This document shows positions 58,869 to 64,000 of a DNA stretch of 64,000 bases, piece after piece. The notes beneath the pieces are model-generated. The model had not been told where the DNA came from, ran no database searches, and saw only the letters and a list, made by a program, of their open reading frames with translations. Within the stretch, counting starts at the first letter, position 1. Each line of letters begins with the position of its first letter. Source of the DNA: Sedimentisphaerales bacterium (lineage in GTDB: Bacteria; Planctomycetota; Phycisphaerae; Sedimentisphaerales; Anaerobacaceae); contig OY970194.1 in NCBI GenBank assembly GCA_963708075.1, positions 6,112,001-6,176,000 on the forward strand, given 5' to 3'. A program made the position numbers and the translations under genes.

Positions 58869-59375
58869 ATGCGGATTGGGATTATTTCGGACACACACGA
58901 CAATCGGCGAAACGTCATGCAGGCAATTGAGATTTTCCGCACGACCGGCGTACAGTATATTCTACATGCGGGGGACATCGTGGCGCCGTTCACGACGAAG
59001 GCATTCGGCGAGCTGCGCAGCGCGAAATTCATCGCGGTCTTTGGAAATAACGACGGCGAGAAGCTCCTGCTGAAGCGCACCGTCGAGGACTTCGGAGGCG
59101 AGATTCACGAGTACTGCTACAAAGGCGAGCTGGACGGCCGGAAGATCTGCATGATGCACACGGACCACTTGGCCGAGGACGCGGTCAAGAGCCAGTTGTA
59201 CGATCTGGTCATCTACGGCCACACGCACCACCCGGACATCCGCCGGGAGGGCAGGACCCTGGTCGTCAATCCCGGCGAAGCGACAGACTGGCTCACCGGC
59301 TCCGGTCATCTGGTGATTGTGGACCTGAAAGACATGACCCATAGGGTCGAGCCGCTGGAGTGGTGGGTAGTATAG
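58869..59375 (+). CDS. Metallophosphoesterase (YfcE/MJ0936 family)
   Basis: ISDTH; HAGD; GNND; GHTH; NPG. Confidence 0.92.
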   Translation: MRIGIISDTHDNRRNVMQAIEIFRTTGVQYILHAGDIVAPFTTKAFGELRSAKFIAVFGNNDGEKLLLKRTVEDFGGEIHEYCYKGELDGRKICMMHTDHLAEDAVKSQLYDLVIYGHTHHPDIRREGRTLVVNPGEATDWLTGSGHLVIVDLKDMTHRVEPLEWWVV

Positions 59376-59438
59376 TTGCGGATTGCGGATCGGTGTGTGG
59401 GCACTCAATCCGCAATCCGCAATCGTCAATCCGCAATC
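59376..59438. repeat. Inverted heptamer-repeat hairpin between convergent stop codons
   Basis: TTGCGGATTGCGGAT ... AATCCGC AATCCGC AATCGTC AATCCGC AATC. Confidence 0.78.
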
Positions 59439-59440
59439 GG

Positions 59441-60325
59441 TCAGCGGATCAATTTCTTGAAGTTCTTAAGGGACAGGTCGACAGCGGTCAGAGGGTCAAG
59501 ACCTTCCTTCTCTTCCTCGATGATGTACCACCTGGTGCCGCCTTTGCGGCAGAGTTGCAGGACCTCGGCCCAGGGGATGTCGCCTTCACCGATCAAGGCC
59601 TTCGGGTTCGTCTTGGAGTGTTCCTTGAGGTGGATCGTCGTGGCCCGGCCGGGATAGCGCTTCAGGTACACGAGCGGATCGCCGCCGCCGTCGAGGGCAT
59701 TGCCCGTGTCGAACTGCATGATGACGTCCTTGGTGGTGTTACTGGCAAGGAGGTCCCAGCCCGTTGTGCCATCGACGGGGGCGAAATCGTGAGCATGGTT
59801 GTGATAGCCGACCTGCATGCCGTGCGGCTTGACCTTCACGGCCAGCTCGTTGAATCGTTTGGCGTAGTCGAGCCAGCCCTGCTTGGGATTATCTTCCTTC
59901 GGCTGAAGCCACGGGCAAATCAGGTACTTGTTGCCGATTGTCTTGTTGAAGGCGATGGTGTCGGCGAGCTTGTTGTCGGCGAGGTCTGCCCACTGCGTAT
60001 GCGAGCCGCAGCAGACGATGCCGTTGTCGTCGAGGATCTTGCGGATGTCCTTGGCCGAATGGCCGTACCAGCCGGCGAACTCGACGCCCTCGTAGCCCAT
60101 CTTCGCCACCTTCGCGACCGTGCCGGACAGGTCCTTCTCCGCAGCGACACGGACGGAGTAAAGCTGCAGGCCGACAGGAATGACGCCTCTCTTGGGTGCG
60201 GCGGTTGTCTTGGTTCGCTCCTTCATACAGCCAGACCCCATAATGCCCGCGGCGGCCAGTGACGCTACGGTGGTTGCCAGGAAATCCCGACGTGACACGC
60301 TTGGATGGTTCGTCCCTGCTTTCAT
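59441..60325 (-). CDS. Sugar phosphate isomerase/epimerase (AP endonuclease 2 TIM barrel) with Tat signal
   Basis: SRRDFL; GLQLYSVR; YHNH; DTGN; HLKE. Confidence 0.9.
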   Translation of the reverse strand: MKAGTNHPSVSRRDFLATTVASLAAAGIMGSGCMKERTKTTAAPKRGVIPVGLQLYSVRVAAEKDLSGTVAKVAKMGYEGVEFAGWYGHSAKDIRKILDDNGIVCCGSHTQWADLADNKLADTIAFNKTIGNKYLICPWLQPKEDNPKQGWLDYAKRFNELAVKVKPHGMQVGYHNHAHDFAPVDGTTGWDLLASNTTKDVIMQFDTGNALDGGGDPLVYLKRYPGRATTIHLKEHSKTNPKALIGEGDIPWAEVLQLCRKGGTRWYIIEEEKEGLDPLTAVDLSLKNFKKLIR

Positions 60326-60474: not shown

Positions 60475-61305
60475 TCAGTAGTCTTTGAACCTGCGCATCC
60501 AGTCGGGCCAGCGGTCGCCGGTGACGCCACCGGCGCGGGTCCACTGGCCTCGGGCGTTGAAATCAGGACTCCAGTCGAGGGTCCAGAGCTCTTTGATGCC
60601 GACTTTGCGGACGGACCAGTCCATGAAGAGGGTGTTGACGAATCCGCCGTGACGCGGGATGCAGAAAGGCCTGATGCTGTTGCTGTTGCTGATATTGGGA
60701 TTTGTGGCGGCCTCGGTCTCGGTCTGTGGCGGGATGTCGTTATGGGTCGGATAGCCTGCCCACAGGGCGCCATCCAGCATGATCGGCACGTGGTTGCCGC
60801 CTCTCTTGTAGATGCTCGACCATCGCTTCTGCTTCGGTGGAGGCGTTGCCCCGTGGCCTTCGCCGCCATCGTAAGCGGGAGTAAAACCGTTGACCGCATA
60901 GCTGCCGGCGCGGTACGGGTGTTTCGGGCAGTACCAAGCCAGGTACGTGCCGCCGGCCCCCGTTCGGCTTGTCTTCCGCGTGGCCACCGGGCAGAACTCC
61001 TCGAAAGTGAAATTGTCAAGGTAATAGGCAAACTGCTGTGTCCGGCAGTAGTCCAAGGCATCGCGGTCGCGGAGGCGGCCCTCGTTGCTCTCGCCCAGCG
61101 TCGCGAACAGCATGCCCCACTGGTGCAGGTTCGCCGCGCAGACCGTTGCCTTTGCCTGTTTGCGCACGTTCTGCAGGACGGGCATGAGGATCGCCATCAG
61201 CAGCGCGATGACGGCAATGACGACGAGCAACTCGATGAGTGTGAACGCGCGGCGGCGGGCCCCGCCCCGCAAATGAGAAGTCCGACCCGTTCGACTCTCT
61301 GTCAT
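60475..61305 (-). CDS. Prepilin-type N-terminal cleavage/methylation protein with H-X9-DG-like C-terminal motif
   Basis: AFTLIELLVVIAVIALLMAILMP; RHGGFVNTLFMDW. Confidence 0.88.
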   Translation of the reverse strand: MTESRTGRTSHLRGGARRRAFTLIELLVVIAVIALLMAILMPVLQNVRKQAKATVCAANLHQWGMLFATLGESNEGRLRDRDALDYCRTQQFAYYLDNFTFEEFCPVATRKTSRTGAGGTYLAWYCPKHPYRAGSYAVNGFTPAYDGGEGHGATPPPKQKRWSSIYKRGGNHVPIMLDGALWAGYPTHNDIPPQTETEAATNPNISNSNSIRPFCIPRHGGFVNTLFMDWSVRKVGIKELWTLDWSPDFNARGQWTRAGGVTGDRWPDWMRRFKDY

Positions 61306-61442
61306 ATCTGTCCCTGTCAAGGTAGATCCATTATACCGCACAGGTTCTCGCCTGTGCAATCAAAACACTCCGCGTACACAAGCCGCGATTTCCTTTTCAT
61401 CTCGTACTTGGTAGACTACCGTGAGATAGATGGGGGTTCTGG

Positions 61443-62135
61443 ATGGCGTTTGCATACGAACGGGAAATGGCGGCACCGGCGAGCGCGTGGCTAGCTGCAC
61501 AGGAGCTGATGGTCAAGCGGGAGTTCCCGACGCCGTGGGGCGTCTGTGATCTTGTCGGCTGCTCGCTGAACGAGCTCAAGGTGCGAAAAAGATTGCTCCT
61601 GGGCCAGCGCAAAGCGCTGCGCTCGCAACTGCGGGTGCATGTGCTCTCGCTGATTCCCGACCGCAGCGAGGGACGGTCCATTAGCCTTGATGACCTGCAT
61701 CGCTGCTTCGGCGGCCACCTGGATCGCGGCCGGATCGAGGAGGAAATTGAGAAGCTTATCGAGGATCGCTTCGTGGAGCAGGTCGATGGGCAAACCTACT
61801 CCAGGCATAATCGCTGGGTACCTCTGCACAAGAGACTAATCGCGGTCGAGCTCAAGCTCACCCGCACGGACGATGTCTTCGTCCAGGCCGTCAACAATCT
61901 TGGGTTCGCGGATGAATCGTACGTGGCGCTGCCGGCCGACCGGGCCCGGCGGCTGGCAAAAAGTCAATCGAGAGCGGCATTCACCGCAAAAGGGATTGGC
62001 CTGCTGGCGGTCGGCCCCGATAGCTGCCGGGCGATTCTCAAAGCCAGGCCGATGCGCCGGCACGCGAACAGTCCCATCCAGCACTACTGCGTCGAGCGGT
62101 TCTGGCAACCGTACCTCAGGGGCGGCCGCCCCTGA
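61443..62135 (+). CDS. PD-(D/E)XK nuclease-like protein with probable inserted winged helix
   Basis: REF....GVCDLV; IAVELKL; QA...FADESYVA. Confidence 0.65.
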   Translation: MAFAYEREMAAPASAWLAAQELMVKREFPTPWGVCDLVGCSLNELKVRKRLLLGQRKALRSQLRVHVLSLIPDRSEGRSISLDDLHRCFGGHLDRGRIEEEIEKLIEDRFVEQVDGQTYSRHNRWVPLHKRLIAVELKLTRTDDVFVQAVNNLGFADESYVALPADRARRLAKSQSRAAFTAKGIGLLAVGPDSCRAILKARPMRRHANSPIQHYCVERFWQPYLRGGRP

Positions 62136-62169
62136 CGAATGCGGAATTCGGAATGCGGAGTGCGGAATA
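62128..62169. repeat. Left heptamer arm of the four-helix-bundle cassette
   Basis: GCCCCTGAC GAATGCG GAATTCG GAATGCG GAGTGCG GAATA; inverse of 62578-62619 (39/42). Confidence 0.88.
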
Positions 62170-62172
62170 GGA

Positions 62173-62532
62173 CTACTTGCGCCCGTGGGTTCGTGCCGTC
62201 TTGATCGACGTGACGACCATGGCGAGAATCTCGTCGGCCTCACTCATCAGGCTCGACATGCGACTGGCCTTCATGATGCCGGCCTCAACAAGCAGCTCCA
62301 TCCAATAGGCGGACTCATCGCATTCCTCTTCGACAATGCCCATCTTCGCGACGAAATCGGCAGGCGACTTTGGGCGGCAAGCGGCGCGATAGTTCGCACC
62401 AACCGACGTACCGCAACGAAGCAACTGCCCGCCAATGACATCCGCCGCTCGCGATCGAGGTAATGCCTCGACAAGCCGGATGGTTCGTAGAGCAAACGCC
62501 TTTGTACGCTTTCTGAGTTCATTATTGTCCAT
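62173..62532 (-). CDS. Four helix bundle protein (TIGR02436 / 23S rRNA IVP-like family)
   Basis: LRKRTKAFALR...QLLRCGTSVGANYRAACR..S..DFVAK..IVEEECDES.YWMELL. Confidence 0.92.
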   Translation of the reverse strand: MDNNELRKRTKAFALRTIRLVEALPRSRAADVIGGQLLRCGTSVGANYRAACRPKSPADFVAKMGIVEEECDESAYWMELLVEAGIMKASRMSSLMSEADEILAMVVTSIKTARTHGRK

Positions 62533-62577
62533 GCACGGCATGGTGTGCAGGATTCGTCCCTTCCGCAAGTGTTCCCG

Positions 62578-62619
62578 TATTCCGCACTCCGTATTCCGAG
62601 TTCCGCATTCGTCAGAGGC
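62578..62619. repeat. Right heptamer arm of the four-helix-bundle cassette
   Basis: TATTCCGCACTCCGTATTCCGAGTTCCGCATTCGTCAGAGGC. Confidence 0.88.
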
Positions 62620-63901
62620 TCATGAGCATGAGTTGCTCGGCAACTTTGCCGGGCTCGCGGACGCTGACGGAGCCGTTGGCCGACAAGACTCCCTTAGGCA
62701 TCTGAGGCAGGCGTCGGCCGAGGACGTATGCCTGCGAGAGGTCCTCGTACAGCCGCAAGGCCCGCTCCGTTGGCAGCGTCATGGCAAGCGTGTCGAGCCA
62801 CTCCTTGTAGAAGGCGGCAAGCTGGTCTTTGGCGACATCCTTGTTGGCCAGCACGGGAAGCTGGTCGAGCAGTTGCCGCAGACTCGGGTACATGCTGTCC
62901 GTGGGGGGCAGGTCGGCCAGGGCCTGTTCGAGCCACTCCCTCATCTCCGGGCTGGCAACGGCCATTCTCCTCAGCGGTGGGATCGCCAGTTTCGGGCGGC
63001 CCTTCTGGATAGGGCTCATTGGCGTGTAATACGTGTAGCTTGTTCCGATGCCCAGCGCAGGATGCTGGCACAGGCCGCGAACCCACAGCACGATGTTCAT
63101 GCCCCAGTACGGCCCCGCAATTACGGGCGCGTCCCTGGGGAGCTGCTCCCTGAGACCTTCGTGAAACGCGAGCAGGGCGGAGTACCGTTCGGTGAAGTTC
63201 TCGCTGAGGTTGTGGTCTGAGAGCGTGATGTCCACGACCCACATGCCATCGGCGCGGGCCAACTGGCAGTCGTGCATGGCCGCCTGTAGCTTGTCGTCAC
63301 GCTGAGGTTTACGGCGGAGAATGGTCGAGCTCGTGAAGACCACCGGAAGAATCAGTTTGACGTCGGGCTTCATCCTGTCCTTCCAGAGCCCCGCGGCCTC
63401 GGCGAGCATGCGGTTGATCTTGTTTCTGCTGCCGCCCGGCGGAATCGGCAACTGCGGCACCGAAATCCAGAGGGGCTTGTGCTCCATGCACGCATCGAGG
63501 TTCTCCGCGACGAACGCATTCAACTCATCCGCGTGCTGTTTGACCCAGTACTTCGGGTCCGTCAAGACTCGATACCCGGTGAATCGGCCGAACTGTCCGT
63601 ACCATCGCTTCCAGAGCTCGTATTTCCAGTCATCCTGCTTTGCCCCTTGCTCATCCAGCGGCCACCGGGCTTCAACGGTTTCCGGCGGCTCCGTGCCGAT
63701 ATCCATGGGCCAGGTGGTCCCGAGGATACAGTCGTAGGCGTCCACCGTCGCGTCCACCCACAGGGGAGTCCCCGGCTCGAGCAGCGGCACTGTCGCGGCG
63801 ATGGTTTCCAGCGGGACCCGCATGCAATGTGCGTCGGCGAAGTACTTCCTGGCGATCGCGCTGTCGCCCTCATTATTGATGAAAGGTATGTAATCCGCCA
63901 T
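62612..63901 (-). CDS. Hypothetical protein, possibly a TIM barrel related to beta-family/sce7725/TGT-like proteins
   Basis: Long ORF with alternating beta/alpha pattern (LWVD, ISVP, ILPV, DGMWVV, VIAGPYWG); convergent with the nuclease-like gene; family call is inference. Confidence 0.5.
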   Translation of the reverse strand: MADYIPFINNEGDSAIARKYFADAHCMRVPLETIAATVPLLEPGTPLWVDATVDAYDCILGTTWPMDIGTEPPETVEARWPLDEQGAKQDDWKYELWKRWYGQFGRFTGYRVLTDPKYWVKQHADELNAFVAENLDACMEHKPLWISVPQLPIPPGGSRNKINRMLAEAAGLWKDRMKPDVKLILPVVFTSSTILRRKPQRDDKLQAAMHDCQLARADGMWVVDITLSDHNLSENFTERYSALLAFHEGLREQLPRDAPVIAGPYWGMNIVLWVRGLCQHPALGIGTSYTYYTPMSPIQKGRPKLAIPPLRRMAVASPEMREWLEQALADLPPTDSMYPSLRQLLDQLPVLANKDVAKDQLAAFYKEWLDTLAMTLPTERALRLYEDLSQAYVLGRRLPQMPKGVLSANGSVSVREPGKVAEQLMLMSL

Positions 63902-64000
63902 CGCCGCACCCCCCATTGGACTGTGTCGAGTCTATTCACCCCATACAGGCGTTTCCTCGTCTACGCTCTTATGTACGCAGCATTCCGGGGAGGTGTGCAG

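Follow-up and report, generated by a model that had tools for sequence, protein, structure and literature searches.

In this study, we analysed a window of 64,000 nucleotides from a Sedimentisphaerales bacterium (assembly GCA_963708075.1, contig OY970194.1, positions 6,112,001 to 6,176,000) and in it a segment of 496 bp (62116..62611; positions are those of the window unless a contig is named), in which a single gene for a four-helix-bundle protein, here called gene H, is enclosed by two inverted arms of tandem heptamers and which lies between two convergent protein genes, A and B. The segment is a genuine insertion immediately downstream of a stop codon. Judged by analogy with described systems, it is likely a selfish cassette resembling the REPtrons (REP, repetitive extragenic palindrome) and a general form of the rRNA intervening sequences (IVSs) that bear an open reading frame (ORF). 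At this site, one compact unit can be compared base by base in its empty, filled and flipped states; the base-exact empty allele, the polarised flip and the promoter pattern are new here. It bears on how IVSs spread, on the role of a common four-helix-bundle family and on the excess of 7-base repeats in bacteria.

An insertion at the overlap of two genes

It had been proposed in the initial annotation of this DNA that the site before insertion can be recovered by removing 496 bp. When this deletion is computed, gene A is rejoined and ends with ...QPYLRGS*, and a contig of a related strain, found in run X1, skips exactly 62116-62611. This contig of 262 nt joins 62115 to 62612, with a joint that slides by four letters (TCAG) fitting either side; it is a single contig of depth 2, placed at permissive likeness, and as it is about 83% and 95% identical to the window on its two sides it comes from a relative. 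The same run also contains contigs identical to gene H of the window. An empty, overlapping allele had further been expected in homologous gene pairs, and gene H is indeed absent from 18 of 18 distinct A/B loci, a set from which two duplicate pairs were dropped and from which L004 (gene B alone), L007 and L193 (gene A but no B in the locus) and five weak matches to A were left out. The ends of the two genes overlap by 14 bp in 13 of these loci; in the remaining five the overlap is 17, 20, 20, 23 and 139 bp. Gene A homologues end in ..RGS* or ..KGN*, overlapping gene B. The original target site in the window (62612..62625, plus strand) is a 14-bp overlap as well, running from the stop of B (62612-62614, minus strand) to the ancestral stop of A (62623-62625). 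Several distant A/B pairs have TCAGAGGC at the site, and therefore the octamer on the B side is ancestral host sequence. For the locus L020, no empty site was found among 151 genomes searched.

All coordinates given previously were reproduced. The 42-bp repeat (62128-62169 / 62578-62619) is 93% complementary and encloses gene H. Its A-side arm (62128..62169, plus strand) consists of an octamer followed by GAATGCG GAATTCG GAATGCG GAGTGCG GAATA (heptamer part 62137-62169), and its B-side arm (62578..62619, minus strand) of a heptamer part at 62578-62610 plus the host octamer; the mismatches are C62131:A62616, T62147:G62600 and G62155:T62592. Folded in silico, the 492-nt unit reaches -232 kcal/mol (z -7.8), which 0 of 100 shuffles equalled. 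The two inner mismatches had been noted as G-U wobble pairs on the plus strand. As a sign of selection on RNA they carry no weight, since the argument fails on gene H's own strand and in L048, a filled allele described below: the two wobble pairs exist on the plus strand only, both are mismatches on the minus strand, where the outer C:A pair turns into a wobble, and the inner arm mismatch of L048 is a wobble on neither strand. Rfam gave no match within 61300-64000.

The octamers TCAGGGGC (62116-62123) and TCAGAGGC (62612-62619) are present as claimed, and the 20-bp palindrome at the A-side junction (62116..62135) is real, being more precisely a hairpin with an 8-bp stem and a 4-nt loop; perfect 20-bp palindromes number 31 in the genome. 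Here the insert starts with a direct near-copy of the target octamer, followed by four bases and an inverted near-copy, and the latter lengthens the arm and provides the new stop of gene A (62133-62135). The stem is kept in three of three filled alleles (window, L047 and L048), while the loop (GGCC in the window and L047, GGTT in L048) and the B-side octamer drift. As general features of such inserts, neither the direct repeat nor the hairpin was upheld. Using widened windows around the arm ends of 68 loci, a repeat matching at 7 of 8 positions was seen at five loci, two of which are this site, compared with 8.8% in a swapped-flank control, and a comparable hairpin occurred only here and at 3 unrelated loci of the 68. 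Arms extended by at least 6 bases into host DNA at 1 of the 68 loci, the boundaries being crude. The junction palindrome and the direct repeat are peculiar to this site, and the simplest account of the junction would be a brief duplication together with a fold-back copy that was retained for the end it gave to gene A.

Gene H and its predicted promoter

Gene H (62173..62532, minus strand) encodes a protein of 119 amino acids, and its family assignment was confirmed by TIGR02436 (86.7 bits, cut-off 24) and PF05635 (62.1 bits, cut-off 33.8). The predicted structure has four helices (predicted local distance difference test score, pLDDT, 95), and the model bears out the suggested likeness to Avd, the accessory protein of diversity-generating retroelements (DGRs), with template modelling (TM) scores of 0.87 to 2RLD, 0.83 to 2GSC and 0.76 to Avd. 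Among the three filled alleles the ratio of non-synonymous to synonymous substitution rates (dN/dS) is 0.07-0.12, like that of the neighbour genes; by this measure, gene H is under purifying selection, and it looks alive and self-sufficient.

Gene H is predicted to carry its own leaderless sigma-70 promoter (62540..62568, minus strand), in which a -35 box TTGCGG (62563-62568) is followed by 17 nt, a -10 box (62540-62545), 7 nt and the ATG; the TTG of the -35 box doubles as an in-frame alternative start of H. The -10 box is CACCAT, thus decayed, in the window, TATGAT in L047 and TATCAT in L048. Among 104 H loci with a usable start, 11 have a -10 box and nine of these a -35 box too, and a ribosome-binding motif is present at 1 of the 11 and 0 of the 9, compared with 50 of the 104 overall. 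Since several of the nine loci with both boxes are one and the same site and a generic consensus scan for promoters in L047 did not report the leaderless arrangement, this promoter is a prediction only. Were it right, the message of H would start inside the loop and the long hairpin would form only in read-through transcripts. At L007, L020 and L050, where the neighbours were readable, H is antisense to the flanking genes (they were unreadable at L056 and L060).

Filled alleles in both orientations

The filled site was found in two metagenome loci, L047 and L048, both with the A-H-B layout of the window. In L048 gene H has the same orientation as in the window and in L047 it is reversed, so that both orientations occur across lineages in a comparison of these three. 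The outer flanks of L047 are unmoved, its A-side arm has one extra unit, and its arms are rearranged rather than cleanly exchanged. Assemblers usually end on word sizes longer than 20 nt; the longest exact match between the two arms of L047 is 20 nt and hence shorter than these, which makes it unlikely that the flip is an assembly artefact. Synonymous divergence (dS) in gene H is 0.40 between the window and L047 and 0.84 to L048, and a tree places the window and L047 as sisters (support 98/60). As the window is nearer to L047 than to L048, the flip in L047 is likely derived. We read it as a rare recombination between arms and not as a programmed switch. Together with the predicted promoter, the flip would mean that antisense transcription from such inserts can be directed at the neighbour on either side.

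Viral contigs gave three distant H loci, no gene A and no junction palindrome. In run X3, one contig (record 19; window 62138-62331) is 98% identical to the 3' end of H and the arm and has 102 unplaced letters before the arm; it stems either from the cassette at a different position or from a join made via the repeat.

Related genes and heptamer arrays elsewhere

The genome has six TIGR02436 matches, five full-length and one partial. Inverted heptamer arms, which had been expected for the family members of this genome, were detected by alignment in four of the five full-length ones and by repeat count in the fifth, and each full-length member has its own heptamer. Among 83 loci of H homologues, 73 had enough flank for an arm test, and arms were present at 50 of these 73 compared with 0 of 43 shifted flanks; mismatched pairs reached 93/300 because the clade shares one heptamer family. 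Grouped by their flanks, 111 H-homologue loci (the window accounts for two) give 65 clusters, and 51 of these contain a single locus. Judged by this clustering, related H genes sit at many different sites, and close relatives of H are found at many unrelated ones, some antisense within operons. Upstream arms of the GATTGCG type accompany 62 of 81 loci in the window's clade and 0 of 19 and 0 of 17 in two other clades, a pattern that was defined post hoc on the window's clade and in which kin are not independent; in these comparisons, arm type follows protein subfamily across sites. In one four-helix-bundle subfamily (L270-L286), present in many families of the phylum, the polarity of the arms is opposite, with the A-rich arm upstream of the gene. 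The genome holds cognate and non-cognate pairs of protein and arm, which makes binding, processing and mobility directly testable.

Arrays without a gene are abundant. The genome has 521 arrays of period 7 compared with 36 of period 8, and 110 of the 521 have an inverted partner; many heptamer arrays form gene-less hairpins, and in 80 of 85 short-loop pairs the G+T-rich arm comes first. The unit order of the cassette's A-side arm recurs in dispersed arrays, with 8 occurrences (its own included) compared with 1.5 in shuffles and with 0 of 2000 shuffles reaching 8, a recurrence that suggests that the arrays were copied from a common template. One and the same junction can be found bare, with a gene-less hairpin or filled. 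One gene-less hairpin lies in frame inside a dGTPase-like gene (G000:C1:5775441; L224, L227-L246), where heptamer arms are present in 10 of 20 congeneric loci and in none of the other 10 and where at least three different heptamer families are seen across congeners, as if the arms had been replaced or rewritten in place. Old cassettes common to the genus are found at two further sites, one between what we take to be an SRP (signal recognition particle) RNA-like and a dnaX-like gene (L026-L046) and one between genes that are presumably murB-like and ddl-like (L022-L028, L041); in such genus-wide cassettes the arms stay complementary while the heptamer word drifts.

Comparison with known systems

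Among described systems, the closest in build is the IVS in helix 45 of the Coxiella burnetii 23S rRNA, in which a protein of the same family, S23p, is encoded in a loop closed by a long terminal stem (28 bp, compared with 42 bp here) with tandem heptamers upstream of the ORF; that IVS measures 428-444 nt compared with 496 here, neither has a known mobility enzyme, and RNase III excision has been shown for it (PMC4990558). That the cassette, too, may be cut out by RNase III-like processing or may move through a hairpin intermediate, as suggested in the initial annotation, is a conjecture. Like an IVS, the cassette has a terminal heptamer stem around an S23p-family ORF. Unlike an IVS, it lies between two protein-coding genes and outside any rRNA helix, is predicted to carry a promoter, is found in either orientation and holds a gene under purifying selection. 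The cassette is therefore not an rRNA IVS by location and has the same build.

With the REPtrons and the REPINs (bacterial interspersed mosaic elements, BIMEs) served by TnpA-REP (RAYT), the cassette shares one gene between inverted cognate repeats, dispersed gene-less doublets and several repeat families per genome (PMC6006769). Its cognate repeats are likewise dispersed as inverted doublets, whereas gene H is not an HUH-Y1 nuclease gene, the tandem heptamers are without a GTAG-type foot, and the gene-bearing unit itself appears at new sites. Avd (PDB 4DWL, 8UB7; 10.1101/2023.10.23.563531) has the fold modelled for H at 13-15% identity; in contrast to a DGR, no reverse transcriptase (RT) lies within about 7 kb and there is no sign of a DGR, for which template and variable repeats were not searched separately. 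An insertion sequence or miniature inverted-repeat transposable element does not fit, as a transposase is neither encoded nor adjacent; the initial annotation had already noted that none is adjacent, and we found neither a transposase nor a recombinase among the main ORFs for about 7 kb to each side. Intergenic arrays of 7-mers near gene ends have been described with GGGAATC in Xanthomonas (PMC4692102), often as inverted pairs as here, and with TAACTGA in Beggiatoaceae (PMC4679880). The available parts of these two reports draw no link to a four-helix-bundle gene or a mobile cassette, and among the literature matches listed, in which most subscription journals are not covered, there is no account of such a cassette outside rRNA.

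Mechanism and alternative explanations

The insertion and its limits, both orientations, the purifying selection on H, the spread of related genes over many sites, the gene-less hairpins with the same units and the coupling of arm type to protein subfamily are shown by the data. To account for them, we lean towards the idea that H is an adaptor that recognizes its own arms and assists an enzyme of other origin in placing copies of arm-bounded units at further gene ends, which would make the cassette a selfish one. An adaptor is favoured because H is no nuclease, because Y1 and RT partners were not found, and because Avd, a pentamer on which its RT depends, binds an RNA stem-loop (10.1101/2023.10.23.563531); a pentameric ring and nucleic acid binding are reported both for Avd and for a Xanthomonas protein. 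According to this model, insertion after the stop of B would have duplicated 4-8 bp of the overlap, and fold-back copying would then have made the inverted octamer and the small hairpin, kept because gene A gained a new stop. Later, ordinary recombination or template switching between the arms may have flipped the inside one unit out of register, which could be tolerated because H would be expressed from its predicted leaderless promoter and its neighbours are convergent. The H protein itself would be an Avd-like ring and act as adaptor, not as catalyst.

Several observations weigh against this adaptor model. No mobilizing enzyme was found: the genome has 13 matches to Y1 transposases, none with heptamer arms as its ends, and its sole RVT_1 match (C1:1191244-1192818, L184; 519 amino acids) is 4.9 Mb from the cassette. 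A regular target-site duplication was not found across the 68 loci, where old inserts may have lost theirs. Only three filled alleles are known, hence one flip, and no joint with a strand change was seen at the site in four contig sets, contigs being prone to drop rare variants. The cassette has been at the site for dS 0.4-0.9, and the SRP RNA-like and murB-like sites are common to the genus, so that movement is slow. The coupling of arm and protein could also follow from plain co-inheritance, and Coxiella S23p was reported to be probably not made in vivo (PMC4990558). Heptamer arrays lie 1.3-1.6 kb downstream of the RVT_1 gene of L184. Y1 transposases and the RT were considered as partners and rejected, since they have no heptamer-arm ends.

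The main rival is that H is an RNA-binding regulator of heptamer hairpins, which controls its own message via the arms and whose cassette was moved passively, by gene transfer or illegitimate recombination, the dispersed hairpins being its binding sites. This would agree with the purifying selection on H and its long residence, with the strict polarity of the short-loop hairpins (80/85), with arms that are kept complementary while the heptamer changes at one site, and with the regulatory role that has been proposed for other heptamer arrays (PMC4679880). We consider a passively moved regulator unlikely, however. Some hairpins lie in frame inside coding sequences, where 10 of 20 congeneric loci have none, and close kin of H are spread over many unrelated positions, in part antisense inside operons. 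It is improbable, in our view, that the arms are substrates of an HUH (Y1/RAYT-type) transposase from elsewhere acting on single-stranded DNA hairpins, with TCAG as the cut core and H as cargo. The 4-letter ambiguity at the joint, the 13 Y1 matches, the REP-like inserts drawn to the same gene ends and the way in which REP doublets have been proposed to move (PMC6006769) would all suit such a mechanism; yet no Y1 gene is bounded by heptamer arms, the arms are without a GTAG-type foot, no common tetranucleotide is evident by eye at other arm ends, and a cargo role leaves the constant pairing of arms with this protein family unexplained. Very improbable, finally, is that the pair is controlled by a programmed switch in which inversion turns a promoter towards one gene or the other: both orientations exist and the internal promoter pattern would flip with the segment, but no recombinase lies among the nearby main ORFs, the four runs gave no strand-change joint (within the limit stated above), the arms of L047 are rearranged and not cleanly exchanged, and 18 of 18 more distant A/B pairs do without the cassette.

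If the adaptor model for this cassette is extended, four-helix-bundle proteins and heptamer arms may form a widespread, transposase-free mobile class, in which each subfamily reads its own 7-base word and, in the manner of Avd, recruits a polymerase or RT from elsewhere to write units at gene ends. We offer this tentatively; if true, it would account both for the ORF-bearing rRNA IVSs and for the heptamer excess in bacteria.

Neighbouring genes and further observations

Gene A (61443..62135, plus strand) encodes 230 amino acids and its present end, ..LRGGRP*, lies within the insert; gene B (62612..63901, minus strand) encodes 429 amino acids from the ATG at 63901. Neither had a family match at E 0.001. 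For gene A, weak leads only were obtained (PADLOC, E 0.034; MmcB-like, 0.75), and it presumably has a nuclease-like motif. A single-sequence structure prediction for gene B reached a pLDDT of 36, and its Atlas matches were unnamed clusters only. The two genes form a conserved convergent pair of patchy spread (of 401 genomes in the class, 14 have gene A) and are a candidate defence module. In L002 (1492-3647) a further gene lies upstream of B, and its product looks like an FRG-domain protein.

In this assembly, rnc, the gene for RNase III (G000:C1:6345025-6345661), is broken by a frameshift, perhaps through an error of assembly; it is intact in five of five congeners. Gene ends that take up heptamer units also draw in unrelated REP-like hairpins and small genes (L206, L160-L181); one insert of this group, at a junction where the genes overlap, has a 21-bp duplication at its flanks. 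Another abundant repeat, with GCGAAACAAAGCCAAT as its core, alternates with heptamer arrays in long intergenic mosaics (G000:C1, e.g. 238811-239400 and 6514373-6514950). Heptamer arrays also face outward around an RNA gene candidate at G000:C1:5344274-5344720, presumably that of RNase P RNA. Within the window, another pair of heptamer arrays lies at 59360-59450, between metallophosphoesterase and sugar-isomerase-like genes, and shows as spurious reading frames of the SAIRNPQ type.

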